DNA of 39,335 nt, from sequence record SRR31156797_3634. One strand, 5' to 3'. Below the pieces are notes generated by a model. The model searched no databases. It was not told the origin of the DNA and was given only the letters and a program-made list of their open reading frames with translations. This document shows, in pieces, positions 7,132 through 37,684 of this stretch. Both the position numbers and the translations under genes were made by a program. Positions within the stretch are counted from its first letter, which is position 1. Each line of letters opens with the position of its first letter.

Positions 7132-7177
7132 AAAAAAACGATGACGCCAGGCGGGGCACGCCTGGCGTCATTCTTTT
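7132..7177 (-). terminator. Intrinsic terminator downstream of the MFS gene (end of catabolic cluster)
   Basis: 13-bp perfect stem atgacgccaggcg / cgcctggcgtcat with an A7 tract (U7 on the minus strand). Confidence 0.8.
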
Positions 7178-7240: not shown

Positions 7241-8581
7241 TTAACGAGCGGTCGCTGCAACAGTGCTCGGTTTCTTGTGGGCGAATTTGACGGATGTTTC
7301 CGGGGCCCAGATGTGACAAACGATACCGCCTATAATCAGGGTGGCGATACAGGCGCCAAGAGCTGCGTAGATACCAAAGTGTTCATTGACGATGGGGAGC
7401 AGGAATGCTCCACCACCGGCACCGATACGGCTCACTGCGATGGTCAGGCCAACACCGGATGCTCGCAGTTCCGTGGGGAACAACTCGGGCGGGTAGGCAA
7501 ACTCAAGGACAATGGAGATAGCAAGGACGGTTGAGAAGGCAGCAAGCATAATCAGGGACAGCACGCCGGGCATGTCGGTCCACAAGGTCATAATAGTCAG
7601 GACCGCGCCAGCACCATAGAATGTGAACAACAGGAACGCTCTGCGAGAGATTCTATCGATAAGCCATGTACCAATCAGTACGCCGACGATGGTGAAGACA
7701 TTATACATAACGCCGGATGCATACGGATTCTCAATGTGCATGTTTGAAAGAACCAGCGGCAGGAAGATGCTGATAGCAAAGAACGGCAACACCTGACACA
7801 GGAAGAAGACACAAGAGACAAGCGTATTGTAACGAAGTTCGGGGCTAAACAGACGGAACCAGGAAGCGGAAGGAGCTTCTTTTTCCTCTGCAGGCAGGCC
7901 ATACTGCTTACCAAGATACCTGTGGATATTCTCCAAAGCCTTTGCTGTGCGCCCTTTCTGAACCAACCAGCTGGGAGATTCGGGAACGCCAAAACGAAGC
8001 AGCACAGTAATCGCTGCGGGAATAGCGGAGGTACACAGCACCCAACGCCAGCCGTTATCACCAAGGCCGTCCATGAAGAAACCGACGATGTAAGCGATAA
8101 CGTAACCGACTGTCCAGGAAACGAGCAGCCAAGCAAGAAAGCCCGAACGTTTCTTGGTGGGAGTCCACTCACTCAACAAAGCGATACCAACGGTATAGTC
8201 AGCACCGATACACATGCCAAGTACAAAACGCAGTACAGCCAACACCAGCGGGTCGGAAACGACAAACTGAGCCAGGGACAAAGCCAAAGAGGCAAACATG
8301 ACTGTTGCGAACAACGGTTTTCTGCCAATTCGATCAGCCATAGGGCCAGCAACAAAACTTCCAAGCAGAATACCAAACAGGGACGCGGCTCCAAGGACAC
8401 CGAGCCAAAAACTGGTCAGTCCCAAAGGTCCAGTCGCGTAGCTGAGCGCGATACCAACAATGCCGAGAATATACCCATCGGTAATCTGGCCCATGAATGC
8501 ACCAGCGGCGATTTTGCGATGAATCGGGAAAGATGGAGCATCTTCAAAACTTACACCTTGGTGCTTTTGCGTACCCTTCAT
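7241..8581 (-). CDS. MFS transporter, YgcS/YaaU-like (sugar porter-related)
   Basis: About 12 hydrophobic segments; DGY, ADRIGRK, GADY, PESPxWL, ELFPTELRASG and WAPET motifs; start at ATG 8581 after AAGGTG. Confidence 0.88.
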   Translation of the reverse strand: MKGTQKHQGVSFEDAPSFPIHRKIAAGAFMGQITDGYILGIVGIALSYATGPLGLTSFWLGVLGAASLFGILLGSFVAGPMADRIGRKPLFATVMFASLALSLAQFVVSDPLVLAVLRFVLGMCIGADYTVGIALLSEWTPTKKRSGFLAWLLVSWTVGYVIAYIVGFFMDGLGDNGWRWVLCTSAIPAAITVLLRFGVPESPSWLVQKGRTAKALENIHRYLGKQYGLPAEEKEAPSASWFRLFSPELRYNTLVSCVFFLCQVLPFFAISIFLPLVLSNMHIENPYASGVMYNVFTIVGVLIGTWLIDRISRRAFLLFTFYGAGAVLTIMTLWTDMPGVLSLIMLAAFSTVLAISIVLEFAYPPELFPTELRASGVGLTIAVSRIGAGGGAFLLPIVNEHFGIYAALGACIATLIIGGIVCHIWAPETSVKFAHKKPSTVAATAR

Positions 8582-8834
8582 AATTGTCACCTTTTGTAAA
8601 ATTGTCCTGATTACAAATTATTTTTCAAGTCCACCAAAGATTTTCTTAATGAAAACGGCTTTTCTTCTTTGGTGATCGGCATGCGCAACATCCTTTTTTC
8701 AACAACAGTAAAAGCACTGTTATGCATGCAACCGAATAGTCGTGTTAAAATCTGTATTGCCCTCCCCCTTCGTCACTCAAGATAAAATACACTGTATGTT
8801 TTCATCCTTTGCCATCCTATGGACTGCGAAATAC

Positions 8835-9401
8835 CTAACGGTTGTCTTTCCACCGCGCGCAAAGCGAATTATCAATGCGCAGTTGATCGAGAAGACGACC
8901 GGAAAAATGCTGCAACATATCATCAATGGTCGTTTTGGAATCGTAATATGCAGGGCAGAACGGGGCGATAACAGCACCAGCCTCTGTCAAAGTCTGCATG
9001 TTGCGAAGATGAATCATTGTCAGGGGAGTCTCTCTGGGGACAACTATCAACGGTTTGCGTTCCTTCAACGTCACATCAGCCGCACGGTGAATAAGATTCA
9101 TTCCGGCACCGCTGGCGATGGAAGCCAGGGAACTCATGGAACACGGGCAAATAATCATGCCGTCATGCTGCCACGACCCGCTGGACGGACCAGCCATCAT
9201 ATCCTTGATGTCGTAAACCGTGTGTGCATGCTTTTTGAGCGACAAATCACTGCCGCGAAATTCTGATTGCATGACCACCTCAGCACCCGCCGACACGATA
9301 AGATGAACTTCCAGATCCTTGATTCCCGCATAATGACGCAGGAGTTTTTCAGCCAGAGGCATACCGCTTGCCCCAGTCACACCAACAACAATACGATGCA
9401 T
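8835..9401 (-). CDS. ubiX: Flavin prenyltransferase UbiX/Pad1
   Basis: VGVTGASG, SSGS, PCSM, RAADVTLKERKPL and RETP motifs; GGGAG RBS. Confidence 0.93.
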   Translation of the reverse strand: MHRIVVGVTGASGMPLAEKLLRHYAGIKDLEVHLIVSAGAEVVMQSEFRGSDLSLKKHAHTVYDIKDMMAGPSSGSWQHDGMIICPCSMSSLASIASGAGMNLIHRAADVTLKERKPLIVVPRETPLTMIHLRNMQTLTEAGAVIAPFCPAYYDSKTTIDDMLQHFSGRLLDQLRIDNSLCARWKDNR

Positions 9402-9537
9402 AAACACTCCCCTTTCAATTTCGGAATCCTGCCCCGGATTCCGTAAAACTCAACAAATCCTGCCCTCAACACACCTTCCGCCGTGCAGAGCAAGGGGCCA
9501 ACAACGTCAGCCCCTCACCCGCAAACGTATTTTTGAT

Positions 9538-9915
9538 TTATTCAACCACGCAAATTGCATCCATTTCGATCAGGCAGCCGCCAGCAATATTGCTGACTTC
9601 TACGCAGACACGAGCCGGACGATGGTCGCCCATGAAATTGGCGTACACTTCATTAAACGCCTCGAAGTCATCCCAATTTTCGATAAAAACAGTGGTTTTC
9701 GCGATATCGGTGATCTTCAAGCCAGCCTCTTCGAGTACGGCGTTCAGGTTGGCAAGCGTCTGTGCGGCCTGCTCGGCCATGTTTGATCCGACAATAGTTC
9801 CACCAACGGGATGAAACGGAACCTGACCGGAAAAGTAGTAGGTATTTCCGGCTTTCACGGCATGTGAATACGGGCCTACTGAGGCACAGGCTTTAGAAGC
9901 ATGAATAAATTCCAT
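9538..9915 (-). CDS. RidA/YjgF family imine/enamine deaminase
   Basis: GPYS, SGQVP, NEVY and RPAR (catalytic Arg) motifs with C-terminal IE; AAGGAG RBS, start at ATG 9915. Confidence 0.9.
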   Translation of the reverse strand: MEFIHASKACASVGPYSHAVKAGNTYYFSGQVPFHPVGGTIVGSNMAEQAAQTLANLNAVLEEAGLKITDIAKTTVFIENWDDFEAFNEVYANFMGDHRPARVCVEVSNIAGGCLIEMDAICVVE

Positions 9916-9980
9916 GACACTCTCTCCTTGAGGGGGGCGTGTGGCTGCCGTTACGTAAGCAGCCACACACATTGTATATT

Positions 9981-11303
9981 TTAGATTTCGTCTTTGGCGT
10001 TGAATTCTTCCCAGGCAAGACGGACGCGTGCACCGGCAGTACGGAAAGGATCCGGCGGCAACCAGCTGGGTTTGGCAATGCGGCGCAGGAAGTTGAGTTC
10101 TTCACTCTGAACACCACTGATCCACTCAGCAATGTAGTGGCCCATCATGCAGGTCTTCGCCACGCCAGCACCTTCACCACAAGCGGAAGCAAACAGGTTG
10201 GACGATTTCTGCGTCATCAACGGACGGTAGTTCATGGTCATGTTGATCATGCCGCCGTAGACAAACTCAAAGTTGACATGGCGCAGGTTGGGGAACCTGT
10301 TTTCAAATGCCTTGCGCAACTTGGGAATGGAGCGCTGGATACGCTGATGGGAGGTGGTAAGCTGTGAGTTAAAGGCAAAACCGTTACGAACGAAGATGCG
10401 TTGGTCAGCGGTGTAACGCACAGTGGTACCGGCAGGGTGACCAGCTGTACAACCCCAAGGCTCGACGCCTTCGAAGTCTCTCAATTCGTTATCAGTCAAC
10501 TTGCGAGTGAATGCACCGTATGAAAGGACGGGACAGAATACGTTCTTGACGATACCGAACTGTTCAATGAAAGGACCGCCGGTCACGATGACATGCCCAC
10601 CAGTGATGGTTCTGCCGTTTTTCAAAACAACAGACATTGTGCTGCCTTCGTCAATACGCAGGACAGGAGTCTCTTCAAATATTTCAACATTGTCAGGCAG
10701 GGTGGTGCAAAGACCACGAAGTACGTCAGCGGGGTTCACCAGTGTGGAGCCTGCGGTATACAAAGCCTTGGTATAGTACTTGGTACCGAGACGACGGTTC
10801 AACTCTTCGCCTTCGAAAATCTTGTAGTCAACACCCATCTTCTCAAGATCATGCACTTCCGTGTCGATCATCTTGTAGCTACGAGGATGGCAGCAACAGA
10901 CATACTTGCCGCTGTCACGCCAGTCCACATCGATACCACTGTTATTGATGGTGTCACGCATTCTGCCGATGATGGCGGTGTTCAGCTTGAAGTACATCTT
11001 GTTATCTTCAAAAGAAGAACCGCCGGTATCACCAAAGTCATGAGGAACGTCGATAATGAAACCGGCGTTCTTGCCGCTGTCGTTGTTGCCAATCTTGATG
11101 GCTTCGATCAAGGCAATCGACTTGTCAGGGTTCAACTCAGCAAGACGGCTGGCAGCCCCATACCCGCCATAACCAGCGCCAACAATAATGAAATCGTACT
11201 TGTCACTCATATCAGCAGGAGACTTGAATGTATGGTCTTTGTAAGAAGACATTTCAAGCCAGCTCTGCCCGGTAGTCGTTGGAAATAATTTTACTTCATG
11301 CAT
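9981..11303 (-). CDS. FAD-dependent oxidoreductase, DAO / D-amino acid oxidase-like family
   Basis: IVGAGYGG Rossmann motif, SGKNAGF, FEETPV and C-terminal GAGVA; substrate not assignable. Confidence 0.85.
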   Translation of the reverse strand: MHEVKLFPTTTGQSWLEMSSYKDHTFKSPADMSDKYDFIIVGAGYGGYGAASRLAELNPDKSIALIEAIKIGNNDSGKNAGFIIDVPHDFGDTGGSSFEDNKMYFKLNTAIIGRMRDTINNSGIDVDWRDSGKYVCCCHPRSYKMIDTEVHDLEKMGVDYKIFEGEELNRRLGTKYYTKALYTAGSTLVNPADVLRGLCTTLPDNVEIFEETPVLRIDEGSTMSVVLKNGRTITGGHVIVTGGPFIEQFGIVKNVFCPVLSYGAFTRKLTDNELRDFEGVEPWGCTAGHPAGTTVRYTADQRIFVRNGFAFNSQLTTSHQRIQRSIPKLRKAFENRFPNLRHVNFEFVYGGMINMTMNYRPLMTQKSSNLFASACGEGAGVAKTCMMGHYIAEWISGVQSEELNFLRRIAKPSWLPPDPFRTAGARVRLAWEEFNAKDEI

Positions 11304-11421
11304 AATGATGCTTCCCTTGTTTAAAGTAACGCTGTCAAAAGGCAGCTGACAAAAAACCTGTCAGAATACAACCCGTTTTCGAAGCGTCTCTCCCTTTCCT
11401 CACAGCTCCGATCTGGGCGGC

Positions 11422-11458
11422 GTTGCAGAGGCAAGAGCTGCAGCTCCTGCCTCGCAAC
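11422..11458. other. Long intergenic stem-loop inside the catabolic cluster
   Basis: gttgc-agaggca-agagct / agctc-ctgcctc-gcaac imperfect inverted repeat with no adjacent U-tract. Confidence 0.55.
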
Positions 11459-11511
11459 CAATCGGGAGTCTGGGCTTAAGACTACTAATGCCTTATCGCC
11501 CGTCCCTCCGG

Positions 11512-13665
11512 CTAATCGTTGGGGTGCAACACAATCCGTGCATCCGCTACGGCCAGCCCTTTTTCCCATGCGAACACGGGATTCAGATCAACTTCAGCGA
11601 TCTCTCGCAACTCATTCACCATGTGCGAGATCACACATACAGTTTCCGCCAGGGCCTCTTTGTCGCAAGGTGCAGAGCCTCGGGCTCCTTCCAGCAACTT
11701 GTGACCCTTAATTTCTTCCACCATCTGGCGACATGAAGGCATGTTCACCGGTGCGACGCGGAAAGAGATGTCTTTAAGAATTTCCACGAAGATTCCACCC
11801 AAGCCGAACATTACTGTGGGGCCGAATGTGGTATCGTGGCTGGCGCCGATGATGCATTCCACGCCGCCTGGCAGCATGGGGGTCAGCATCACACCAAAGA
11901 TGTCAGCGTCAGATTTATAGTTCAAACCGTTTGCCACAAGTCGTGCGTAAGCTTCGCGAGCGGCTTGTGCCGAATCGATGCTCAATGCAACGCCTCCGGC
12001 GTCGGTCTTATGCAGGATGTCCGGAGACACGATCTTCATGACGACCTTGCCGCCAAGAGTCTCATATTTCTCAGCCGCTTCATCTTCGCTGCTGGCAAGC
12101 AGGCATTCCGCAAGCGGCAGGCCGTAGGCACTCAGCACTTCGCGGGCCTCGGTCTCCACCAGATTGATGCGACCGCTCTCGCGCACTGCACCAAAAATAG
12201 CGTCAACCTTTTCCTTACGATCAGCAGGCAGAGCTGGAAGTTCGGCTTGAGCCTCTTCCTGCAGGGCATGACGATTCTCGCTATAATCAACCAGTGCACC
12301 CATTGTGCGCATGGCAGCTTTGACAGAATCAAATACCGGCACACCCATATCACTGATGTAGGCGAGGCATTCAGGACGCTGCGGAGCATAGATGGAGTGC
12401 ATGACAACTGGTTTGTCAGAAGACTGCACACGAGTGATCATGCTTTTGGCAACATCCATTTCCAATTCCCTGAACTCTTCGGACAGGTCTGCATATCCGC
12501 CGTACAGTCCGACAATCACAACACCATCGATGTCTGGATCATTCAAAAGTACATCAAGGCAGCGATCAAAGACCCACATGTCAGCTTCGGGCGTACCCGC
12601 AAGGTCGACAGGGTTTTTAATGGGACAATGAGGCATCAGGATCTCAGCCAGCTTTGCCTGTGTGGCCTCCGAAAGAACCGGAGCCTCCAACTTGAAGCTT
12701 TCAGCAGAATCCGTGGCCATAACACCGTGACCGCCACCGTCTGTCAGGATAGCGATACGCTTGCCCTGAGCCGGTTTACACTTGGAAAAGGCCTCGGCAA
12801 CATCCAACAATTCGTTGGGACTGTCTACACGGATAATACCAGCCTGATTCAAGGCTGCATCAAAGATCTTTTCACTACCGGCCAAAGAACCGGTATGCGA
12901 TGCAGCGGCTCGAGCGCCGGCAGCACTGCGACCGATCTTGATCGCGGCGATGGGCTTCTTGGCAGCAACTTTCCGAGCGGCTTCAAGGAATTTGCGGCCA
13001 TCTTCTTCAGATTCGACACGCAGGCCTTCCATATAGAGGAGAATGACTTTGGAGATATCATCTTCTTCAAGATATTCCACAAAATCATGAAACCGCAGGT
13101 CCATCTGGTTGCCAATGGTGGCCCAGCAACTGTAACCGAGGTTACGAGCCTTGGCGTTGAAGTTCAGGTCAATGCCGAAGTTTCCACTTTGCAACACGAG
13201 GCTCATGGGACCAGGGGCGAGATCAATGATACTGGCATTCATGCTCACGGCTGCGCTATAGGTTCCCATGCAGTTGGGACCCTGAATACGCATGCCGCCT
13301 TTGCGGGCGGCCTCAAGCATCTGCCGTTCGATTTCCTTGCCCTCGGCACCGGTTTCACCAAAGCCGGTGGAAACCACGATGGCACTTTTCACTCCCTTTT
13401 CCACACACTGCTCCACAACGGGAACAATATATTTGGGGGCAATAGCGATGATAGCGAGATCGACATCCCCTTCCACAGACATGATATCCGGGTAGGTCGG
13501 GTGACCCAGAATTTCTCCGCCAGAGCGGGAAATCAGGTAAATATCGCCTTCGTATTTATTATCAAACAGGCTTTTTGCCGTCCAATAGCCATACTTTTTC
13601 GTATCGCGCGAAGCACCGATCAATGCCACGCTACGAGGGCGGAACAGAGTCTTCAAATCAGACAT
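11512..13665 (-). CDS. ADP-forming acyl-CoA synthetase (acetate-CoA ligase family, fused alpha-beta)
   Basis: PRSVALIGAS CoA-binding domain, GPNCMG, SHTGSLAG phospho-His, NPVDL and ATP-grasp HKTDAGGV / DLNPV motifs; no GNAT extension. Confidence 0.92.
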   Translation of the reverse strand: MSDLKTLFRPRSVALIGASRDTKKYGYWTAKSLFDNKYEGDIYLISRSGGEILGHPTYPDIMSVEGDVDLAIIAIAPKYIVPVVEQCVEKGVKSAIVVSTGFGETGAEGKEIERQMLEAARKGGMRIQGPNCMGTYSAAVSMNASIIDLAPGPMSLVLQSGNFGIDLNFNAKARNLGYSCWATIGNQMDLRFHDFVEYLEEDDISKVILLYMEGLRVESEEDGRKFLEAARKVAAKKPIAAIKIGRSAAGARAAASHTGSLAGSEKIFDAALNQAGIIRVDSPNELLDVAEAFSKCKPAQGKRIAILTDGGGHGVMATDSAESFKLEAPVLSEATQAKLAEILMPHCPIKNPVDLAGTPEADMWVFDRCLDVLLNDPDIDGVVIVGLYGGYADLSEEFRELEMDVAKSMITRVQSSDKPVVMHSIYAPQRPECLAYISDMGVPVFDSVKAAMRTMGALVDYSENRHALQEEAQAELPALPADRKEKVDAIFGAVRESGRINLVETEAREVLSAYGLPLAECLLASSEDEAAEKYETLGGKVVMKIVSPDILHKTDAGGVALSIDSAQAAREAYARLVANGLNYKSDADIFGVMLTPMLPGGVECIIGASHDTTFGPTVMFGLGGIFVEILKDISFRVAPVNMPSCRQMVEEIKGHKLLEGARGSAPCDKEALAETVCVISHMVNELREIAEVDLNPVFAWEKGLAVADARIVLHPND

Positions 13666-13688
13666 TGTATTCCTCTTGACTCTACGGG

Positions 13689-13910
13689 TTAGTCCAACTC
13701 GACGACGCCGATGGCGACATCAGGACAGACGATGCGACACAGGCCGCACAGGACACAATCTTCAGGACGGACCTGTTCCACAACATTATATCCCTGACCG
13801 TTCAGATTCTGGCCGATGGCAAGGGTATCCTTGGGGCAGGCTTCAACGCACAGGCCGCAGGACTTGCAGCGTTCGGCGCAGATAACGTGCTTTTTATTCT
13901 TGGCTTTCAT
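13689..13910 (-). CDS. 2-oxoacid:ferredoxin oxidoreductase delta subunit (2x[4Fe-4S] ferredoxin)
   Basis: Two CxxCxxCxxxCP motifs; position in the OFOR operon. Confidence 0.9.
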   Translation of the reverse strand: MKAKNKKHVICAERCKSCGLCVEACPKDTLAIGQNLNGQGYNVVEQVRPEDCVLCGLCRIVCPDVAIGVVELD

Positions 13911-13914
13911 AGTA

Positions 13915-14466
13915 TTACTCCGCAGCGCTGGCGTAGAGGGCGCGACCCTTTTCCAGGGCTTTCAAGTTCATTTCCAGCAGGGCAGGCTTCTTGACGCCCA
14001 TAAGTTCCCGCAACACTTCTTCCACTGTCTCAAATGTCAGAACCTTGGTGGCTTCCAACACAGCGCCGAGCATGACGATGTTTGCGCAACGCACGGAACC
14101 GAGTTCAACAGCGACATCGGAAGCCGGAATCAAGACCTGCTTCACGCCTTCGCGTTCACGAATTTCCGTAATCAGGGAACTATTTGTCAGCACGAGACCA
14201 CCAATGGCCGAGCCGTCGACGCAACCGTCGTATATAGTGGGGCTGAGAGCGACACTCACATCAGCGTCATTCTCTACAAGCGGGTTACCGATACGGGAGT
14301 CGGACACGACTACATACCCGGTGGAGTCACCGCCACGCTGCTCAATGCCGTAGGTCTGGGTCATCACGACCTGCAGCTCCTGCTTCATGGCACCCTTGCA
14401 AATCAGCTTGGCGAGCAGTGCTGATCCCTGACCGCCGGAACCAGAAAATGTACACTTAGTTCTCAT
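13915..14466 (-). CDS. 2-oxoacid:ferredoxin oxidoreductase gamma subunit
   Basis: GSGGQG, YGIEQRGG and ANIVMLGA motifs; start at ATG 14466 overlaps the end of the beta gene. Confidence 0.9.
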   Translation of the reverse strand: MRTKCTFSGSGGQGSALLAKLICKGAMKQELQVVMTQTYGIEQRGGDSTGYVVVSDSRIGNPLVENDADVSVALSPTIYDGCVDGSAIGGLVLTNSSLITEIREREGVKQVLIPASDVAVELGSVRCANIVMLGAVLEATKVLTFETVEEVLRELMGVKKPALLEMNLKALEKGRALYASAAE

Positions 14467-15217
14467 TCTTCTGCTCCATTTCATTTTTGAAGACCTGTGG
14501 CTCAAAGTACTCAACCATTTTTTCCTTGTTCCACTTGTAGGCGTCCGGCACGGAAAGCTTGAGACCTGTGGGACAAGGGACAATGAATTCAACAAAAGAA
14601 AAACCGAGACCCTTCATCTGACAATCCAAGGCCTTGCGTACACTGCTCGCGGCCTTGCGGATGCTCTTGGCATCACACACGGATTCACGGGCAACGTATT
14701 TAGCGCCACGCATGTCAGCCATCATTTCCGGGACACGCAGGGGGTAACCATGCTGATGCACGTCACGTCCCTTGGGAGTAGTCGAAGTGACCTGTCCTTC
14801 AAGTGTGGCGGGAGACATCTGGCCGCCAGTCATGCCGAACAGGTTGTTATTGATCATGAAACAGGTGACGGGAAGGCCGCGGTTGGCGGTGTGCAACAGC
14901 TCCGCCAAACCAATGGCACTGCAATCGCCGTCGCCCTGATAGGTGTAGACAATGTTGTCCGGGTTCGCGACTTTGTACCCCACGGCAACCGCCGGAGCAC
15001 GACCATGCATGGCCTCAATTGCATCAATATCCATATAGTGATGAGAAAAACCGCCACAACCGATTCCGACAACACTGACCGTGCGCTTGCGGATGCCCAA
15101 AGCTTCAATGGCTTCCGCTACGAGGCGCGTTACAATGCCATGGCCACAGCCGGGGCAGTAACTGAACTTCTTATCCAGCAACAGTGTTTCGCCGTATATT
15201 TTTGCGAGTTCTTGCAT
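14456..15217 (-). CDS. 2-oxoacid:ferredoxin oxidoreductase beta subunit (TPP-binding)
   Basis: YCPGCGHG, GIGC, HGRA, GDGD...NN TPP motif, GMTGGQ and PCPT. Confidence 0.93.
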   Translation of the reverse strand: MQELAKIYGETLLLDKKFSYCPGCGHGIVTRLVAEAIEALGIRKRTVSVVGIGCGGFSHHYMDIDAIEAMHGRAPAVAVGYKVANPDNIVYTYQGDGDCSAIGLAELLHTANRGLPVTCFMINNNLFGMTGGQMSPATLEGQVTSTTPKGRDVHQHGYPLRVPEMMADMRGAKYVARESVCDAKSIRKAASSVRKALDCQMKGLGFSFVEFIVPCPTGLKLSVPDAYKWNKEKMVEYFEPQVFKNEMEQKNEN

Positions 15218-15228
15218 ATCGTCTATCC

Positions 15229-16293
15229 TTACAGCAACGTGTTGATTTTATCGGTCATTTCGGCAAGCGTGCACAGCGGCATGTCGCCTCCGGTTTTACC
15301 AAGGAAATGCACCGGGACACTGCCGTTCACTGCCAGACGCACGTCGTCGACCATCTGACCGTGGTTCATTTCCACCACCAGCATGGACTTCACGGACTCA
15401 GGCAGATTTTCGAAAGGCTTATTCGGGAAAGGCCACAGAGAGATCGGACGAATCAAGCCAACCTTCTTGCCTTCAGCACGCATATTTTCGACCAAATCCT
15501 GACCCATGCGACCATGGATACCGAAAGCAACCAACACCACTTCAGCGTCATCCACTTGAATCTCTTCCCAACGCTGTTCTTTTTCCTGAATACGCTCATA
15601 CTTGGCGAGCAGACGTTGATTCAGCTCTTCACCCTGAGCATGGGTGTAACTGCCGGTCAGCAGGTAACGCTTGGAATGATCGCCCGTACCTGTGTAAGCC
15701 CAGGAAGAGGTATCGAATTCGGCTGCGTAATCATGTGCGTCCGGGAAAATTGCGGATTCAGTCATGGTACAGGTCACGCCATCGACAACAAACAGCACGG
15801 GGGTGCGGTAGGTGTAGGCCAGCTTCACAGCATCCGGCATGATGTCCACGATCTCCTGACCGCTGGCCGGGGCGAGCACGATAACACGGTAATCACCATG
15901 CCCACCGCCACGCGTGGCCTGAAAATAGTTGCTCTGTGCGCCAACGATATCGCCATCACCGGGACCGACGCGCATGGCGTCAAGCATGATGCAGGGCAAT
16001 TCGCCGCCAGCCATAAAGGAAATAGTCTCCTGCATCAGGGACATTCCGGGACCGGATGTGGACGTTGCGCCCAACTTGCCGGTGCAGGCACACCCTGCCA
16101 GTGCGTTGGCAACTGCCAACTCACTTTCCATCTGCACCATCCGCCCACCGTACTGGGGAAGAATAACAGCTGTATGCTTCATCACTTCCGTCGCAGGCGT
16201 AATGGGGTATGCAAAATGATAACGCACCCCGCACCGCACCATTGCCTCAGCAAATGTCTGCGCATTTTTCAGGAACAAAGTCTCTGATTTCAT
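15229..16293 (-). CDS. 2-oxoacid:ferredoxin oxidoreductase alpha subunit (Vor/Kor-like)
   Basis: YPITP, QMESE, TSGPGMSL, GGGHGD and VVEMN motifs; start at ATG 16293 after GAGGG. Confidence 0.93.
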   Translation of the reverse strand: MKSETLFLKNAQTFAEAMVRCGVRYHFAYPITPATEVMKHTAVILPQYGGRMVQMESELAVANALAGCACTGKLGATSTSGPGMSLMQETISFMAGGELPCIMLDAMRVGPGDGDIVGAQSNYFQATRGGGHGDYRVIVLAPASGQEIVDIMPDAVKLAYTYRTPVLFVVDGVTCTMTESAIFPDAHDYAAEFDTSSWAYTGTGDHSKRYLLTGSYTHAQGEELNQRLLAKYERIQEKEQRWEEIQVDDAEVVLVAFGIHGRMGQDLVENMRAEGKKVGLIRPISLWPFPNKPFENLPESVKSMLVVEMNHGQMVDDVRLAVNGSVPVHFLGKTGGDMPLCTLAEMTDKINTLL

Positions 16294-16351
16294 GTAACCC
16301 TCACTTGCACTTGTTTTGAAATTCAACCGATATTTTCATCATTAGTTGAAT

Positions 16352-16452
16352 TCGTACCATATTGTGTTATGCCGTACCACTAATAGAGCTGAAAAAAATC
16401 AGCAAAAGCAATTGGCTACGACTGTCGTACCACATTGTGTTTCGCCGTTCCA
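16352..16452. repeat. Imperfect 28-bp direct repeat, two copies (16352-16379 and 16425-16452); probable operator
   Basis: tcgtaccatattgtgttatgccgtacca vs tcgtaccacattgtgtttcgccgttcca, 24/28 identical, starts 73 bp apart, upstream of the OFOR operon. Confidence 0.75.
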
Positions 16453-16694
16453 TAAAAATCTATTCCTCAATGACCTTTTCGTCAAGGAGTTTCAAAATAA
16501 AAATGTGCTCCTTTATTCAAATTTTTCTCTATCGGTTGCATACAATTAAACTTATCCCCTAAGATAATTGGAAAATCAGAAATCTTGTGCCCACTTCAAA
16601 AAACATGAAAAGGCTTTCATGCGAATATTCTATCGCATAAAAAGCCCTGCCTATGTGCTTTACGTACACCGGGTTTTATTGGGATTCACCTGAT

Positions 16695-16727
16695 AAAAAA
16701 GCAACGACCTTTCAAGATCGTTGCTTT
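16695..16727 (-). terminator. Probable intrinsic terminator of the IclR gene
   Basis: aaaaaa-gcaacga / tcgttgc-ttt inverted repeat, U6 on the minus strand. Confidence 0.7.
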
Positions 16728-16819
16728 CATATTTCAATTCTATATTGGCTGAATCAAACCATGCCACCAACACAGAGAAGATGCAGCCAGACGGATTGCG
16801 CTGGACGAAGTCACTCTTT

Positions 16820-17611
16820 CTATGACTGTTTCTCCGGCGGATAACTGCTGGCACCTAACCGTATCGAAAGTTGTTCTGCGGCCTTAAACAACTCTCGACT
16901 CGCCATTTCACGCACACCAGGAGAAAAACGCACACTCGGCACAGAGGTTCCAATGGCGGCGACAAACTCATCATTGCAATCAAACACAGGCACGGCCACA
17001 CAGCACACGCCTTGGTATATTTCCTCATTGTCATACGCAATGACGTTTTCCCGCGCTGCTTCAATTTCTTTTATAAAATGAGCCATCTCGGCAGGGCCAA
17101 TCGCTCCATCCGATTCTTTTCGAATATTTTCCAACAACGAACCGGACTTCATGGGGTCCAAAAAGGCAAGGCATACCTTCCCGGAAGCCGATTGATATAT
17201 CGGGAATGAACGGCCAACAATTGAATCCTGACGTAACACCTGCTTTGTTACCAGCCTATCCACAACAACCATTTCTGTACCGGAATACACACTGAGATTG
17301 ATTGTTTCGCCGACGGCCTCAAGCAGCCTTCTCCCATATGGTCTGGCCATTTCCTGAATACTTGCATGTTCAGTAACGAGGCTTCCCATTTTAAAAAGCT
17401 TGAATGTCAATGCATACGCACTTTCTTCTTCGCTTTGTGAAACATACCCAAGATCCTGCAAAGTCAATAGAAACCGATGTACCGTTGTTTTTGGGATACC
17501 AACCGCCCGACTCAAGTCGGCAAGTTCCCACTTGTGCTGCTTGGTCATCTGCTCCAAAACAGAAAACACTTTTACTACAGATCCAATTGTATAATATGCG
17601 TCTTTCGCCAT
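16820..17611 (-). CDS. IclR family transcriptional regulator
   Basis: N-terminal wHTH (LSRAVGIPKTTVHRFLLTL..GYV), SASGK and DNEE...GVCCVAVPVFD effector domain; start at ATG 17611 after GGAG. Confidence 0.93.
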   Translation of the reverse strand: MAKDAYYTIGSVVKVFSVLEQMTKQHKWELADLSRAVGIPKTTVHRFLLTLQDLGYVSQSEEESAYALTFKLFKMGSLVTEHASIQEMARPYGRRLLEAVGETINLSVYSGTEMVVVDRLVTKQVLRQDSIVGRSFPIYQSASGKVCLAFLDPMKSGSLLENIRKESDGAIGPAEMAHFIKEIEAARENVIAYDNEEIYQGVCCVAVPVFDCNDEFVAAIGTSVPSVRFSPGVREMASRELFKAAEQLSIRLGASSYPPEKQS

Positions 17612-18397
17612 CTCTTCTCCATTCATATTTTTATGCCTGCATAATGATTCCAGATTCACTAAAAGTATATTCAGCATGAATCCAACAACTATAACTCATC
17701 ACTTGCAGCAATATCTCAACTCATAATTTCATGAAACAAAACACGATCAGGCAATCATCCAGTGACAAAAATCATTGATATGAAAGCCCAAAAGCCTTGC
17801 CCCTTTCATACCAGCTCAAAATGCTGAAACCGGTATAGTGGTGCGCCCAAATTTCGTGATAAACATTGGCATGAATCCAGTCTTTGAAAAAACACTGGAT
17901 CGCTCTGACGAGGACTGGTGAAAGATCAAACAAAAATCATAAAATCAACAGCCAACCAATAATCTGCCATTCTCAACTCAACTCTGCCTTATTCTCAGAG
18001 GACGCTCGTATGTTTCAACACGCCCACGAATTCAAGCAAGAAGCAGCACTGAAAACCGCTTGCGAATTTTTGTAGCTATGGTATCCGTTTCCATATGTCA
18101 AGATAGCGTAACACTCCTCGGTACAAAAGAAAAGTCTATTTTTACACAATATCAAACAAAGCTTTGTCAATACAACCATGGATCATGCTGTTTTTAAAGA
18201 ACTTGAAAAATATCATTTCCAAACATTTCTTTTATAGAACGGCACACTAAAGCTCCCTTGAAGCAACACAAACAATCATCCACACACTGATTGTTCCGTT
18301 GCACTCCCGAAAATATCCTGTATGCTCAAAGAAAATCGAACTCTTTTCGGTCTTTCTGCCACCCGAAGGACAGGCTTCCGAAGGAGGAGTTGAGGGT

Positions 18398-20110
18398 ATG
18401 AAACGTCTCGCTTTGGTCATAATTTGTCTCATAACAATACTTATCGTCGTTCTGGGCACCTATTTCATATCCATGAACCAGCAGGTCGATACCGCGTGGA
18501 ATAATTCCAAAATACAACTTGAAGCATCGCAAAATCTTTTTCTTGATAAAATCAACAAATATAAGCATTTGCCTTTTACTGTCTCCAAAAACAGAACGAT
18601 TCTGAGACTTTTCGAAAACCGTGCCGACCACATCAAAACAGGGATATTGATCAAGGCCATTCAAGTACGGTCAGGCGCGGCTGTCGTTTACATCATGGAC
18701 AAAGAAGGCAACACGATCGCGTCAAGCAATTATGATGAACCAGACAGTTTCGTTGGCAAGAATTATGGATTTCGACCGTATTTTCAACGAGCCATGGATG
18801 GCCGGGAAGGGTCCATGTACGCCATCGGTGCCACGAGTAGCATTCCCGGTTACTATCTCTCCCACCCCATCACGCTGAACTCTAAAATAGTTGGCGTTGC
18901 AGTGGTTAAATTTGAACTCTCGGAACTTCAAAACGCATGGAAAGCCACGAACAACATTGTCATGGCAAAAGACCCAAACGGCGTCATTGTCCTTTCAAGT
19001 CGGGAAGACTGGATCAACAAGACGCTTGCGCCATTACCGAAAGGACTCCTGAAAGCAGCTCGCAAGGGACGTCTGTATAAGGGGGCTCCCCTTGCCCCAC
19101 TTAATGTTTCCACCGGGACAAGTCTGGGCAATCAATGGATCGAAATCAACCAGACACGATATCTGCTCAATGAACAACGGGTCCTCGGCAAACGATGGGA
19201 ACTCATTGTCCTCGTCCCATGGTCCGACATGGTGGACAACAGTCTGCGAAAAAGCCTCATAGCCTTCCTTGCAAGCCTCGCGGCCGCGGCCGGCATACTC
19301 CTCATTCAGGCACACTTCCTCAAAAAACGCATGGAACGCAGGATCGAAAGGGCCAGACGGACCCGACGAATTGACTCTGAAAGAGAGGAATCACTCAGGC
19401 AACTTGCAGATTCCATAGCCCACCAGATTCGCAACCCGCTCATTGGAATCGGAGGCAATGCCAACCTGCTGAAACGGAAAATTCCAGAAGATCAAAGCAT
19501 GGTTGAACATCTCGGAACAATCATGGACTGTTGCCACGATCTGGAACAACTGGTTGTCTCAGTCAGGGATTACATTGACATTATCCCCACACAAACGACT
19601 CTTTTTGACCTAGAAACACTCATTGAAAAATCCCGTTTGGCAGCCATTGAGAGTGTGAAAACTCCACTCGAATCCGTCAATTGGCGTATCAATATCGCAC
19701 CGGTTTCTCTGCCCATGGACGAAGGCCTCATGGGCAAAGCACTCTATGAAATCCTGACTAATGCATTGGAAGCAAGAGACTCCGACACCATTTCCATCGA
19801 AATTATCGGTGAATGGAAGACAACAAAAGAATGCGCCAACAAATTCGAACTCCCCAGCGAGAAATGTTATGTGCTCACAATCTACGACTCAGGCAGTGGT
19901 ATTGACCCAGAAATTTTCAATCATGTCATGGAACCTTTCTTCTCGACCAAACCGCACGGTTCCGGTCTCGGCCTCGCCAAAGCAAAACGCGTCGTACAGA
20001 TATTCAACGGCGAGTTCACAATTGCTTCGCCTGTCCCAGAGCACACGGAATGGAGCACCATGGTACAGTTGACCATGCCATTTTTGGTCGATCTCAAAAT
20101 CGAGCAATGA
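18398..20110 (+). CDS. Membrane sensor histidine kinase with DctB-like Cache periplasmic domain
   Basis: TM, YIMDKEGNTIASSN...SFVGKNYGFRPYF Cache motif, second TM, H-box IAHQIRNPL, and N/G1/F/G2 boxes (NALEA, DSGSGI, FFSTK, GSGLGL); start at ATG 18398. Confidence 0.9.
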   Translation: MKRLALVIICLITILIVVLGTYFISMNQQVDTAWNNSKIQLEASQNLFLDKINKYKHLPFTVSKNRTILRLFENRADHIKTGILIKAIQVRSGAAVVYIMDKEGNTIASSNYDEPDSFVGKNYGFRPYFQRAMDGREGSMYAIGATSSIPGYYLSHPITLNSKIVGVAVVKFELSELQNAWKATNNIVMAKDPNGVIVLSSREDWINKTLAPLPKGLLKAARKGRLYKGAPLAPLNVSTGTSLGNQWIEINQTRYLLNEQRVLGKRWELIVLVPWSDMVDNSLRKSLIAFLASLAAAAGILLIQAHFLKKRMERRIERARRTRRIDSEREESLRQLADSIAHQIRNPLIGIGGNANLLKRKIPEDQSMVEHLGTIMDCCHDLEQLVVSVRDYIDIIPTQTTLFDLETLIEKSRLAAIESVKTPLESVNWRINIAPVSLPMDEGLMGKALYEILTNALEARDSDTISIEIIGEWKTTKECANKFELPSEKCYVLTIYDSGSGIDPEIFNHVMEPFFSTKPHGSGLGLAKAKRVVQIFNGEFTIASPVPEHTEWSTMVQLTMPFLVDLKIEQ

Positions 20111-20858: not shown

Positions 20859-21962
20859 ATGTCTCATTCACGTTTCAAGGGTACCCTGCTCCTGTTCGTA
20901 GCCTTATTGCTCGCATACCCGCACGCATCACAGGCCTGCACTGGAATGCGCGTTATCGCCAAGGACGGTTCTGTTGCTTTTGGCCGTTCGCTTGAATTCG
21001 GTTTTCCTTCAAAATCCGACATCATGGTTGTCCCGCGCGGCATGACATGGACCGCCTCTGCTCCTGAGGGCAAAGATGGCCTGCAATGGACCAACAAATA
21101 CGCCTTTGTCGGCCCCAATGCTTTTGGGTTAAATCGCCCCCTTGAAGGCATGAACGAAAAAAGCCTGTATGTCGCCGGGTTTTGGATGACAACCGGAGAA
21201 ACCGATTTCCCCAAGGTCAAGCCAACTGATTACCCTAAAGCGATTTCCCAATTAGATATGTGCGCATGGGTTCTCAGCAATTTCGCGACAGTGGCAGAGG
21301 TAAAAAAAGGTCTTTCCAAACAAAAACTGACCGGCGTGGCTCTTGAAGCCATGCACACCACCCCCCTTGCCCATTGGTATGTAATGGACAAGACCGGCAA
21401 GGCAATCGTCATCGAATCCATAGACGGTAAAATTCAATTCTCTGACAATCCTGTAGGCGTTGTCACCAATGCTCCATATTTTGGTTGGCATCTCGACAAC
21501 TTGCGCAACTACATCAACCTACACCCCGCAAATGTTGAGCAATTCAAACTCGGAGAGTATACCGTGCGCCCCTTGGGTGAAGGAACCGGCCTTCTCGGCT
21601 TGCCGGGAGACATGACTCCTCCCTCACGCTTCGTCAGAGCAGCCTTTTTTGCAAACACCGCTATTCAGCCTGCTGACGCGGACGGCGCTGTCACCTTGGG
21701 CATGAACCTGATCGCGAACTTCTCCATTCCCAGAGGGATCACATCATCCGTTGATTCAGAAGGGAAACGCGGCTACGACTATACGCAATGGACAACCGTT
21801 TATGACCTGAGCAGAAAGGCATTGTACTACCGGACCTACATCAACCAAGACTATAAGGTCATATACTTTGACAAACTCCCGCTGGATGGGAAAAAGCAAC
21901 ACATTATCCCCTTGTGGGGCGTCAAGCCTGCTTACGAAGACGTCAGCAAAAATAGTAAATAA
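20859..21962 (+). CDS. Second exported linear amide C-N hydrolase (choloylglycine hydrolase / PVA family)
   Basis: Signal peptide ending SQA, N-terminal CTG, GRSLEF, EGMNEK, TNAP and GLPGD.TPPSRFVRA motifs. Confidence 0.92.
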   Translation: MSHSRFKGTLLLFVALLLAYPHASQACTGMRVIAKDGSVAFGRSLEFGFPSKSDIMVVPRGMTWTASAPEGKDGLQWTNKYAFVGPNAFGLNRPLEGMNEKSLYVAGFWMTTGETDFPKVKPTDYPKAISQLDMCAWVLSNFATVAEVKKGLSKQKLTGVALEAMHTTPLAHWYVMDKTGKAIVIESIDGKIQFSDNPVGVVTNAPYFGWHLDNLRNYINLHPANVEQFKLGEYTVRPLGEGTGLLGLPGDMTPPSRFVRAAFFANTAIQPADADGAVTLGMNLIANFSIPRGITSSVDSEGKRGYDYTQWTTVYDLSRKALYYRTYINQDYKVIYFDKLPLDGKKQHIIPLWGVKPAYEDVSKNSK

Positions 21963-33474: not shown

Positions 33475-33900
33475 TCAGGCTACGAAGCTAATCTCGCCAG
33501 CAGTGCTGTTGACCGTGGCCTCTTTCGCTTGACTAAGCATCTCCATCCCCGTCTCATCAATGCAGACTACGGGCATTTCCTTTTTATAAAACTCTCGCAT
33601 AACCAACGGCCCTGTTAAAAGAACCGTATTGGTACGAAGATTCACCAAAGCCTTTGGAGCCTTGCCCACCCGAGCCAGTTCGAGCAATACCAATCCTGCC
33701 CCACTGGAGCCTTTTCCAAAAGGGAATACAAGGATTTTTTCAGCCATGGACTGCCCATATTGATCACTCAGTGGATCCTGTATAATCCCGGTTTCAGGAT
33801 CAACGCCACCTATAAAACTCAATGCCTTGCGAGAAAACAAAACTTCACCAGCGACTTTCCCTTTGACAATACCTTTGCACTCAATTGTGGTTAATGCCAT
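33475..33900 (-). CDS. Aconitase X small (swiveling) subunit, DUF126
   Basis: LSFIGGVDPETG and ILVFPFGKGSS motifs; overlaps the large-subunit stop. Confidence 0.9.
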   Translation of the reverse strand: MALTTIECKGIVKGKVAGEVLFSRKALSFIGGVDPETGIIQDPLSDQYGQSMAEKILVFPFGKGSSGAGLVLLELARVGKAPKALVNLRTNTVLLTGPLVMREFYKKEMPVVCIDETGMEMLSQAKEATVNSTAGEISFVA

Positions 33901-35147
33901 GACTTCACGCTCCTCTTCATTGTGCCAGCAACGGCCGTTTCAACACAATCCTCAAGGCTTCCGTACACAGGTTTTATTCCACTATACGAAAAACAGTACG
34001 TGCTGAATTTACCGGAATTACTCATAATCCCTTTAAAATTCCATTGATCAAACGGCGAAGACATAGGACAGCCGTCGGTGTAAACTTTCACACCACAACG
34101 TCGCAACGCTTCGTACATTCCATTCTTTTCCATATGCTGTTTATTACAACGATTGGTAAATGCCCAAAACTCCATTGATGAATGAACCTTTCGTCCAGCG
34201 AACGTCTTTAATAAACTTTCACACTCGGCATGCGAAAGATGAGGGCAACCAACAGTAACCATATTGATTTCATCAGGTGAGGCATTACTCATACGCTCTT
34301 CTGATTGACGAAGACGCTCAGGAGTAACAATTACGACATCCCCGGGCTTTTCACCATGAAAAGCCATTTCAAGAGTCTGTGCCTCCGGCGTCAAACCAAG
34401 AAGATGAAACAAACCGACACCGCCAGATGAAGCCGAAGTCGCTGAAAAACGCTTTAAACCATCAATCTTACTATGCAGCGGCAACCCTTCCATTGCTCCA
34501 ATTCGATCACCAACGATTTCGCCATGCACATAGCCAAGCATGTCATAAATAGCGTCATCGAGAAAATCGTCTTCTTTGAATCCCTCAAGTTTTATAAGAA
34601 CTTCTGCTTTTCGATTTTCAGGACAATGCAAACCTTGATATGGGACTCGCCCAGTCAAACCAGCACAAAGGTCAAGCAATCCGGCATACCGTTCTGTACG
34701 AGCCCCGATGATGGAATTCACATAATTCGTCGCATTTGATTCTGCCCAAGCAACCTGTTCGCCAAAACGAGGGACAAAACCCGCAAAATAGGGAGCACAG
34801 GTCCAGGATGCAGAAGCACCAAGAGTGGTATGCGCTTTTTCAATACGTTTATGAATCGCATACAACTCGGGATCAAACCTTTGCTCTTGCCACTTTTCCA
34901 AATCCATCAAGCACGAATTCAATGAGGTCGGTACGCAAAACTTCCCACCCAGTTCGACAAGATGCTCAGCGAACTCCAAAGCGGCAAGTCCGCTATACCA
35001 AGCATTGTCATCATGAACCATGGAGATGGAAATCATTTTTTCCGCTCCCATGGTTTCACCAAGATCGGAAAGGATACTCATCCCAATCCGTGCGGCCTCT
35101 CCGCTATCTCCATTCAATAAAGACTTGTCATAATCATTCAAATACAT
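33891..35147 (-). CDS. Aconitase X catalytic subunit, DUF521
   Basis: TCAPY, WAESNA, NSIIGART, FHLLGLTPEA, GCPH, DGC and NSGK motifs. Confidence 0.92.
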   Translation of the reverse strand: MYLNDYDKSLLNGDSGEAARIGMSILSDLGETMGAEKMISISMVHDDNAWYSGLAALEFAEHLVELGGKFCVPTSLNSCLMDLEKWQEQRFDPELYAIHKRIEKAHTTLGASASWTCAPYFAGFVPRFGEQVAWAESNATNYVNSIIGARTERYAGLLDLCAGLTGRVPYQGLHCPENRKAEVLIKLEGFKEDDFLDDAIYDMLGYVHGEIVGDRIGAMEGLPLHSKIDGLKRFSATSASSGGVGLFHLLGLTPEAQTLEMAFHGEKPGDVVIVTPERLRQSEERMSNASPDEINMVTVGCPHLSHAECESLLKTFAGRKVHSSMEFWAFTNRCNKQHMEKNGMYEALRRCGVKVYTDGCPMSSPFDQWNFKGIMSNSGKFSTYCFSYSGIKPVYGSLEDCVETAVAGTMKRSVKSWH

Positions 35148-36419: not shown

Positions 36420-36533
36420 TTCAAATCTCCTGACCAAGCTGTCACGTTCTTCCTAAAAACATAAGATCGTACATGGTTAGATCCTCAACAGACATACCCG
36501 TCTATCAAATCCATACCCTTTGAAAAAAAAGCA

Positions 36534-37151: not shown

Positions 37152-37193
37152 CACCACCGAGACATCGGTGCCCCAAAACAAAGGCAGAACTTT

Positions 37194-37241
37194 AAAGAAG
37201 GCCTGTAAGCTATAACCCCATAGCTTACAGGCCTTCTTTTT
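37194..37241 (+). terminator. Intrinsic terminator
   Basis: aaagaaggcctgtaagctat / atagcttacaggccttcttt perfect 20-bp stem ending in a T tract. Confidence 0.88.
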
Positions 37242-37511: not shown

Positions 37512-37590
37512 TCAATTAAATGAACGCGATCAATATTCCTCTGGCGATCACATAATCTGTCCACCATGAGGAACCCAAAAACGTTCAAGG

Positions 37591-37661: not shown

Positions 37662-37684
37662 CTAAATAACGTGGAGTGTTTCGG

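Follow-up and report, generated by a model that had tools for sequence, protein, structure and literature searches.

A conserved Desulfovibrionaceae gene cluster that may conserve energy from the breakdown of a cyclic imino acid of the proline type

Layout of the gene cluster and its regulation

The DNA analysed here, called the window throughout, is the stretch of 39,335 nucleotides of sequence record SRR31156797_3634. A listing of its open reading frames, combined with Pfam and NCBIfam profile searches, showed ten co-oriented genes on the minus strand from position 7241 to 17677. In the order of transcription they encode an IclR-family regulator, the alpha, beta, gamma and delta subunits of a 2-oxoacid:ferredoxin oxidoreductase (OFOR), an ADP-forming acyl-CoA synthetase (ACD), a flavoprotein of the DAO family, a RidA protein, a UbiX protein and an MFS transporter. 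An earlier note on this DNA had named the same ten co-oriented genes, and each of its family assignments holds in the profile searches. Judging from the comparisons described below, there is about an even chance that this cluster encodes the central catabolic steps by which Desulfovibrionaceae conserve energy from a cyclic imino acid of the proline type. The nearest genome (G001), which contains the entire cluster stretch at 99% identity, was used as a stand-in for the genome context. The DAO flavoprotein is 90% identical to a protein of Maridesulfovibrio ferrireducens. The features of the cluster are the following.

16820-17677, minus strand, IclR-family regulator (HTH_IclR 48 bits, IclR_C 129.5 bits)
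16327-16819, minus strand, regulatory spacer of 493 nucleotides between IclR and OFOR alpha, with a promoter-like TTGACG-17-TAGATT at 16485-16457 and two copies of ACACAATRTGGTACG
15229-16326, minus strand, OFOR alpha (POR_N 150 bits, PFOR_II 79 bits; PRK07119 405.6 against a cut-off of 399)
14456-15217, minus strand, OFOR beta, the thiamine diphosphate and Fe-S subunit (TPP_enzyme_C 72 bits)
13915-14466, minus strand, OFOR gamma (POR domain 115 bits), its start placed at the ATG that gives an 11-nucleotide overlap with the end of beta
13689-13910, minus strand, OFOR delta, a 2x[4Fe-4S] ferredoxin-like protein (Fer4 and Fer4_7 matches, 42 bits; two CxxCxxCxxxCP motifs)
11512-13665, minus strand, ACD, a fused alpha-beta, ADP-forming (NDP-forming) synthetase of 717 amino acids (ATP-grasp_5 250.6 bits, Succ_CoA_lig 158.9 bits, CoA_binding_2 75.8 bits, Ligase_CoA_2 23.8 bits)
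11304-11511, minus strand, spacer of 208 nucleotides between ACD and DAO, in which a weak hairpin lies at 11364-11346; 37-220 nucleotides long in orthologous loci
9981-11303, minus strand, DAO-family FAD-dependent dehydrogenase of 440 amino acids (PF01266 120.1 bits, residues 37-394; N-terminal VGAGYGG, of the GxGxxG type)
9538-9918 (longest frame from 9972), minus strand, RidA imine/enamine deaminase (Ribonuc_L-PSP 121.5 bits; TIGR00004 134.3 against a cut-off of 106.25)
between RidA and UbiX, spacer of 130 nucleotides
8835-9407, minus strand, UbiX-family flavin prenyltransferase (PRK06029 215.9 against 188; TIGR00421 188.8 against 108.9)
between UbiX and MFS, spacer of 244 nucleotides
7241-8590, minus strand, MFS transporter of the metabolite or aromatic-acid:H+ symporter type (Sugar_tr 154.8 bits, MFS_1 136 bits)
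7141-7171, minus strand, intrinsic terminator closing the cluster, a 13-pair stem (9 G-C) followed by a T-run, 70 nucleotides past the MFS stop

The longest IclR frame reaches position 17677, and position 17611, given earlier as the end of the cluster, falls within that frame; a later ATG may be the true start. In the longest frame of OFOR gamma the POR domain starts at residue 54 and the NCBIfam alignments at residue 44. Together the alpha, beta, gamma and delta genes carry all the domains by which a four-subunit OFOR is recognised. The beta translation shows a GDGD...NNN stretch and four cysteines, which we take to be the defining motif of this subunit. ACD has the domains of an NDP-forming acyl-CoA synthetase and matches solved ADP-forming ligases over its full length; its translation contains SHTGSLAG and LHKTDAGGV, which are candidates for the stretches with the two catalytic histidines of such synthetases, one on the phosphohistidine loop and one in the beta-domain.

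The OFOR genes and ACD are closely packed, with gaps of -11 to 23 nucleotides. In view of the spacers of 493, 208, 130 and 244 nucleotides, ten co-oriented genes are established and a single operon is not. The self-contained ten-gene operon that had been proposed could not be maintained on other grounds either: the IclR gene stands apart, its position and orientation differing among related loci, UbiX (at least 52% identity) occurs in only 6 of the 21 complete related loci described below, and a BCCT transporter gene belongs to the locus in 13 of these 21, its ortholog in G001 lying 235 kb from the cluster. MFS may have a promoter of its own at 8628-8601. The hairpin and T-run at 7141-7171 bear out the strong terminator reported for the end of the cluster. 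The G + C content of the cluster is 0.508 (0.526 from OFOR to RidA), against 0.451 in the remaining window. The cluster is thus richer in G + C than its flanks, as had been stated, and the enrichment is genuine but modest; values for the window's other genes lie between 0.38 and 0.52.

The IclR gene is probably a transcription unit of its own, because the 493-nucleotide spacer contains a conserved promoter-like element and a repeated motif. This separate unit is read as controlling the OFOR-led operon. The motif, ACACAATRTGGTACG, is present as a direct repeat at 16440-16426 and 16367-16353, upstream of OFOR alpha, and has no other copy in the window; the count of 2 compares with 0.08 expected, and none of 100 shuffles reached 2. 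The promoter-like element is conserved in the two closest orthologous loci, and ACACAATRTGGTACG is found in L002 and partly in L003. The boxes are a candidate IclR operator, through which IclR would act on the OFOR promoter.

G001 has an IclR paralog, 84% identical to the IclR of the window, beside a BCCT gene elsewhere in the genome. It is one of the two IclR genes of a BCCT-IclR-IclR trio located 235 kb from the cluster (L092, G001:C1:2176000-2195000, positions 9159-12834). In this trio the BCCT is 82-87% and the other IclR 69-76% identical to the pair which, in other loci of Maridesulfovibrio and Pseudodesulfovibrio, is placed upstream of OFOR in divergent orientation. The trio looks like what is left of a genus-typical locus after its operon had disappeared or had given way to the GC-richer one of the window. 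Divergent from the IclR gene of the window, a dCache_1 sensor histidine kinase is encoded at 18299-20110. Domains of the dCache type often bind amino acids or amines, and this kinase may sense the same substrate as the cluster.

Conservation of the cluster and exchange of the front end

One genome per species was scanned with an alignment of the DAO flavoprotein, and the best 80 of 245 stretches confirmed by tblastn were queried with the ten proteins of the window. The DAO is at least 52% identical in 27 of these loci, 21 of which carry OFOR alpha, beta, gamma and delta as well as ACD and are called complete here. RidA is present in 19 of the 21 complete loci and MFS in 20, the 21st having a partial MFS at a contig end. 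Six loci were without ACD. In L004, L008, L015 and L020 contig ends cut the locus (L020 stops inside OFOR alpha), in L025 OFOR alpha and beta lie 8 kb off, at the contig start, and L022 has methyltransferase genes instead. Two arrangements were found, OFOR-ACD-DAO-RidA and MFS-DAO-OFOR-ACD-RidA-MFS. The recurrence of the gene set is far beyond chance.

A census of 401 Desulfovibrionaceae genomes gave the same picture. DAO (at least 54% identity) was present in 33 genomes. The identities of ACD were bimodal, with 38 of the 401 genomes at 63% or more and all others at 42% or less. Co-conservation, the test named beforehand in the earlier note, was found throughout: all 33 genomes with DAO hold an ACD ortholog, in 32 of them on one contig within 3.3 kb, and the exception is an assembly of 170 contigs. 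The pattern covers at least 14 genera and includes Bilophila wadsworthia ATCC 49260 (L005). Outside the Desulfovibrionaceae, no ACD above 43% identity was found in a sample of 401 genomes across the phylum. Beyond the Bilophila locus, at L005 16335-20186, the opposite strand carries PlsX-like (FA_synthesis), DUF5940/FabH-like and thioredoxin-reductase-like genes, a trio which presumably resembles components of glycine, sarcosine or betaine reductase.

Five of the 38 genomes with ACD and OFOR are without this DAO (G366, G289, G309, G146 and G129), and their loci were fetched. Three of them (G366, G289 and G309) belong to the genus of the window and carry OFOR alpha to delta, ACD, RidA and MFS, followed by a two-subunit dehydrogenase of the DAO type; the G289 locus was checked by tblastn only. 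A profile scan showed a DAO-family subunit of 399 amino acids beyond MFS in G309, and a protein of 473-482 amino acids with Pyr_redox_2, BFD-[2Fe-2S] and sarcosine-oxidase-alpha A3 domains in both G366 and G309. We take this subunit pattern to be that of heteromeric proline, hydroxyproline and opine dehydrogenases. The next gene in G366 and G289 is of the proline-racemase family; the best model for the G366 protein is proline racemase, at 506.5 against a cut-off of 556. In G146, a BCCT-IclR pair stands beside OFOR-ACD-RidA-MFS, which is followed by a two-subunit aconitase X (AcnX), 91% identical to the AcnX encoded in the window. The spacer between MFS and AcnX in G146 (L098 6509-7459) holds several copies of a unit of about 150 nucleotides, which read as short look-alike open reading frames starting MxMPF. 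The fifth locus, in G129, is taken up below.

The window itself also encodes an aconitase X, 16 kb from the cluster.

33475-35147, minus strand, two-subunit aconitase X (large subunit 33891-35147, swivel subunit 33475-33900; AcnX 420.5 bits)

Against the NCBIfam equivalog the enzyme scored 339.9, with a cut-off of 700, over model positions 146-555; the model describes a fused protein and the enzyme of the window is split. An AcnX ortholog (at least 65% identity) was found in 7 of the 401 family genomes, in five genera, and all seven are among the 38 with the OFOR/ACD module. In the characterised enzymes, which are of the fused type, AcnX dehydrates cis-3-hydroxy-L-proline to pyrroline-2-carboxylate via an enamine (PMC5144071). 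The AcnX of the window is therefore put forward as a probable second source of pyrroline-2-carboxylate. Four AcnX-holding genomes were inspected for other proline genes. PutA (Pro_dh) is present in all four, an OCD/mu-crystallin gene in two (G001 and G342) and an Ldh_2 gene of the DpkA type in none; in G146 and G300, queries with OCD and Ldh_2 found neither of these known pyrroline-2-carboxylate reductase families. These two genomes thus show no other sink for the product of AcnX, which counts in favour of the substrate proposed below, as does the restriction of AcnX to genomes with the module.

AcnX in the window is part of a proline-related island at 33475-39199, which further contains a TetR gene (35703-36419), a gene for a protein of the metallo-beta-lactamase fold (36534-37151) and a BCCT gene (37676-39199). 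With the BCCTs of the OFOR loci this transporter shares only 22-28% identity. Elsewhere the window of this marine sulfate reducer holds two genes of the choloylglycine-hydrolase family and a sulfatase gene, at 152-1195, 1282-2931 and 20859-21962.

In these loci one constant back end of RidA, OFOR, ACD and transporter is seen with three kinds of front end, namely the monomeric DAO, a heteromeric dehydrogenase together with a racemase, and AcnX. RidA stays beside the back end in all three well-formed variants. The exchange of front ends also bears on the view that the genes are mere neighbours without a common pathway. Several long spacers (493, 244, 208 and 130 nucleotides) would fit that view, which we hold to be very improbable: the back end persists in loci where another front end has taken over, and the core order is kept over at least 14 genera of the family in two arrangements, so that the synteny census already contradicts it.

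A module working in reverse, in biosynthesis or salvage, was considered as well. ACD would then activate an acid and OFOR would carboxylate the acyl-CoA to a 2-oxo acid, which would be aminated. In principle OFOR and NDP-forming synthetases can work both ways, and anaerobes are known to carboxylate acyl-CoA reductively. Flavoproteins of the DAO type and RidA, however, serve deamination, the loci share no conserved gene for an aminotransferase or an amino-acid dehydrogenase, and a patchy occurrence, in 38 of 401 genomes, is what an optional catabolic trait would show. We regard a reverse module as scarcely credible.

Substrate and proposed pathway

The earlier note had proposed that an amino acid is converted to a 2-oxo acid, then to an acyl-CoA and finally to an acid with formation of ATP. 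The logic of flavoprotein, RidA, OFOR and ACD on which this rests is supported; the ten-gene operon and the aromatic substrate that were part of the proposal are not. The generic scheme, in which an amino or imino acid yields a 2-oxo acid, an acyl-CoA and then an acid plus ATP, is highly probable.

The flavoprotein itself passes no named NCBIfam model. The best are TIGR03329 (96.1 against 632.8) and the model for the pipecolate oxidase AmaA (86.4 against 600), and the matches listed do not include the one for archaeal D-proline dehydrogenase. The only match among PDB sequences was glycine oxidase (E = 3.6e-4), the ESM Atlas returned only generically named DAO clusters, and a plasmid collection returned only 'FAD-binding oxidoreductase' at 39% identity or less. 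From the gene contexts we propose that it is a putative imino-acid dehydrogenase of the D-proline or hydroxyproline type.

A tree of 78 DAO proteins was made by a quick maximum-likelihood run in IQ-TREE, with SH-aLRT support. The OFOR-linked DAOs fall within a single clade of 29 rows (support 98), which includes 22 truly OFOR-linked proteins and four from loci cut by contig ends; L041 is not counted as OFOR-linked, its OFOR match being only 26% identical. Also in this clade is L032, from Sutterella, with a proline-racemase-family gene, RidA, two BCCT genes and IclR. The sister clade (support 97) holds all nine loci linked to a gene of the DHDPS family, five of which have an aldehyde dehydrogenase gene. 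These loci also include one proline-racemase-family gene, one OCD-family gene, one AcnX gene, MttB-family genes and BCCT. Catabolism of hydroxyproline makes use of an epimerase, a D-hydroxyproline dehydrogenase, a DHDPS-type deaminase and a semialdehyde dehydrogenase. The neighbours in the sister clade are, by family, the genes of hydroxyproline catabolism. The scheme of that catabolism is outlined in PMC5144071. Taken together, the contexts suggest that the substrate is probably a cyclic imino acid rather than an aromatic one; a D-isomer, as suggested earlier, is compatible with this.

The sister clade also takes in DAO homologs of the Succinivibrionaceae, often two paralogs, which lie inside MetN/MetI/NlpA (MetNIQ-type) ABC transporter operons (L039-L048, L052, L080). 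These contexts suggest that the homologs act on another substrate, one possibly similar to methionine. Further out in the tree, a third group, of aerobic Proteobacteria, adjoins genes for Rieske oxygenase/reductase, M24, PurU and LysR proteins. The Rieske and MttB neighbours recall the demethylation of proline and hydroxyproline betaines (PMC3950512).

The same architecture could serve an open-chain substrate. Isobutyrate, succinate or a similar acid, plus ATP, would then be made from methionine, from one of the branched-chain amino acids or from a D-amino acid (for instance D-glutamate or D-alanine). OFOR alpha passes, at 405.6 against 399, the subfamily model PRK07119, which is named VorB and points to branched-chain 2-oxo acids, and the solved relatives of OFOR include 2-oxoglutarate enzymes. 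RidA is classically paired with flavoprotein oxidases of open-chain amino acids, the MetNIQ-type operons of the Succinivibrionaceae would fit, and the G129 locus carries a 2-hydroxyacid dehydrogenase. On the other hand, VorB is the label of a subfamily and not of an equivalog, and the NCBIfam searches with the OFOR of the window reached no equivalog for the enzymes of pyruvate, 2-oxoisovalerate, 2-oxoglutarate, indolepyruvate, oxalate or phenylglyoxylate. No conserved neighbour indicates an open-chain substrate, and the front ends with a racemase-like protein, a two-subunit dehydrogenase or AcnX, together with the hydroxyproline-type sister clade, indicate cyclic imino acids. An open-chain substrate is unlikely on this evidence, and it is the alternative to which we give the most room. 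The best solved relatives of OFOR alpha are the alpha subunits of the Pyrococcus 2-keto acid:ferredoxin oxidoreductase and of 2-oxoglutarate synthase, and that of ACD is 4-hydroxybutyrate--CoA ligase [ADP-forming], at 420 bits. These relatives agree, weakly, with a C5 2-oxo acid and a C4 omega-substituted acyl group.

Some neighbourhoods point to methylated proline. In L022 and L025, both within the 29-row clade, and in L026, L029 and L036 of the sister clade, DAO adjoins MttB-family, dimethylamine-methyltransferase-family and corrinoid-protein genes. L025 in addition has an OFOR alpha/beta pair (75% and 73% identical) after BCCT-MttB on the same strand, a possible anaerobic route from proline betaine into the same back end. 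It is conceivable, then, that the substrate is N-methylproline formed from proline or hydroxyproline betaine by BCCT uptake and MttB-family demethylation; the flavoprotein would open it to 5-(methylamino)-2-oxopentanoate, and N-methyl-GABA (N-methyl-4-aminobutyrate) and ATP would result. The BCCT genes in 13 of the 21 complete loci are in line with this, and N-methylproline is an established product of proline betaine demethylation (PMC3950512). In the window and its genome, however, the cluster includes no MttB-family gene, the BCCT ortholog is 235 kb off, and the AcnX and proline-racemase front ends involve no methyl groups. As the substrate of this cluster we consider N-methylproline improbable.

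The aromatic substrate suggested earlier was based on UbiX and the type of the MFS transporter and has no other support; the comparative context favours proline-type imino acids. UbiX matches UbiX/Pad1 proteins of the PDB over its full length. Profile searches found no UbiD in the window, and a query with the UbiD of G001 found none in the fetched loci. G001 has a single UbiD gene, 620 kb from the cluster, whose best solved relative is the UbiD of Escherichia coli and which has its own UbiX 2 kb away; the UbiX of the cluster is a second copy, 48% identical to that one. A UbiD-linked decarboxylation of an aromatic compound was rejected on these results. UbiX adjoins the cluster at differing positions in two DAO sub-clades, and distant homologs (41-43% identical) adjoin IclR in L013 and L014, in a third. 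This recurring placement argues against pure chance, and UbiX is an accessory gene without a nearby UbiD partner. We assume that 4-hydroxy-pyrroline-2-carboxylate dehydrates spontaneously to pyrrole-2-carboxylate, the substrate of a UbiD-family decarboxylase. Speculatively, UbiX hints at an extra step dependent on prenyl-FMN or at the removal of a side product such as pyrrole-2-carboxylate. MFS homologs also adjoin DAO homologs in Pseudomonas, Bartonella and Enterobacterales loci, and the MFS transporter is proposed to be a substrate importer or product exporter.

Pyrroline-2-carboxylate is the known or expected product of each of the three front ends, and in the simplest interpretation it is the compound that the back end consumes. 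For proline and pyrroline-2-carboxylate as the actual substrate the case, drawn from gene contexts, is evenly balanced. The predicted pathway would run as follows. MFS, and BCCT in the relatives, would move the substrate in or the product out. The FAD flavoprotein would oxidise the ring C-N bond of D-proline, or of a hydroxy- or N-methyl relative, to pyrroline-2-carboxylate. RidA would speed the enamine/imine step and the hydrolytic opening of the ring to 5-amino-2-oxopentanoate. With CoA, OFOR would convert this to 4-aminobutyryl-CoA, CO2 and reduced ferredoxin, and ACD would release 4-aminobutyrate (GABA) with formation of ATP. A 4-hydroxy or N-methyl substrate would give the matching GABA analogue. 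The protein families, their co-conservation and the exchange of front ends are observed directly; the substrates of the enzymes, the task given to RidA, the way in which transport runs and the control exerted by IclR are predictions.

Several points weigh against this pathway. The assignment of every enzyme substrate is drawn from gene neighbourhoods, and the genomes compared are related and thus non-independent samples. OFOR alpha lies just over the cut-off of the VorB-named model, and the MetNIQ operons and Rieske/PurU contexts imply that the substrates of the DAO family are not uniform. The source of D-proline is not evident, because no proline-racemase-family gene (PF05544) was found in G001; proline has other routes in this genome, which carries PutA and an OCD-family gene. 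In G146 the 950 bp between MFS and AcnX consist of repeats with no predicted terminator, and the two genes may or may not be transcribed together. The locus of G129, an assembly of 380 contigs, does not fit: RidA and MFS are missing, and the gene after OFOR-ACD encodes a D-2-hydroxyacid dehydrogenase and has a housekeeping context. Chemically, pyrroline-2-carboxylate strongly favours the ring form, and 4-aminobutyryl-CoA tends to cyclise to 2-pyrrolidone, wasting the thioester. No precedent for RidA in ring opening was found in the literature searched.

That literature, which excluded most subscription journals and supplements, contained no published description of the gene set or of an OFOR acting on pyrroline-2-carboxylate, in agreement with the earlier statement that the set is not a recognised, characterised pathway. 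We tentatively suggest, with rather more doubt than for the substrate alone, that Desulfovibrionaceae including Bilophila wadsworthia have an undescribed pyrroline-2-carboxylate:ferredoxin oxidoreductase pathway, with interchangeable front ends and ring opening by RidA, that would yield GABA, CO2, reduced ferredoxin and ATP.

If this is correct, sulfate- and sulfite-reducers of sediment and gut would gain one substrate-level ATP from proline or hydroxyproline derivatives and release GABA-type products. Collagen, plant cell walls, osmolytes and peptide antibiotics are sources of such proline-type compounds. Pyrroline-2-carboxylate would have an anaerobic fate not described so far, OFOR and ACD would extend to a substrate class new to them and RidA would take on a new task. 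There would also be a testable link between proline compounds of diet or host, the growth of Bilophila and Desulfovibrio, and GABA in the gut. Even with another substrate, the cluster is a well-delimited and widely conserved catabolic module with exchangeable front ends, which is now annotated only generically.

Comparison with known systems

The closest parallel in energy metabolism is the fermentation of peptides by Thermococcales, in which POR, VOR, IOR and KGOR together with ADP-forming synthetases convert a 2-oxo acid to an acyl-CoA with reduced ferredoxin, and then to an acid with ATP. The OFOR of the Thermococcales is of the same four-subunit alpha-beta-gamma-delta type as that of the window. 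Thermococcales, whose genes for this are scattered, derive their 2-oxo acids from transaminases and glutamate dehydrogenase. In the cluster of the window and its relatives, by contrast, the acid would come from a flavoprotein with RidA, from AcnX, or from a racemase with a dehydrogenase. The bacterial cluster also gathers the pathway genes with transporters and an IclR regulator, and its synthetase is a single fused polypeptide.

The catabolism of hydroxyproline and D-proline (Lhp/Hyp) shares with the proposed pathway the DAO dehydrogenase, proline racemase and AcnX families, as well as pyrroline-2-carboxylate or its 4-hydroxy form (PMC5144071). Its known routes go by deamination to 2-oxoglutarate semialdehyde or by reduction of the imine to L-proline, in place of which the cluster has RidA, OFOR and ACD. 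The cluster contains no 4-hydroxyproline epimerase, DHDPS-type deaminase, 2-oxoglutarate semialdehyde dehydrogenase or reductase. In the DAO loci compared, the set of epimerase, deaminase and semialdehyde dehydrogenase goes along with DAOs of the sister clade only.

The catabolism of proline betaine and hydroxyproline betaine (Hpb of Paracoccus and Rhodobacter; the anaerobic MttB-family MtpB) is alike in that the relatives of the cluster have transporters and demethylases beside their DAO genes, and in that N-methylproline and proline are intermediates (PMC3950512). It differs in that PutA finishes the proline and that no OFOR or ACD step is described for it; the cluster of the window, in turn, is without a demethylase.

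Pairs of DAO and RidA are not confined to this family, as the two genes are also adjacent in distant DAO relatives of Pseudomonas and Burkholderiaceae. The D-arginine or D-amino-acid dehydrogenase and Rid systems of Pseudomonas are aerobic, with no ferredoxin-linked decarboxylation or substrate-level ATP. The combination found here, its proposed substrate and the role proposed for RidA are absent from the papers found; every part belongs to a family already described, and ATP would be gained by the same logic as in the peptide fermentation of archaea.

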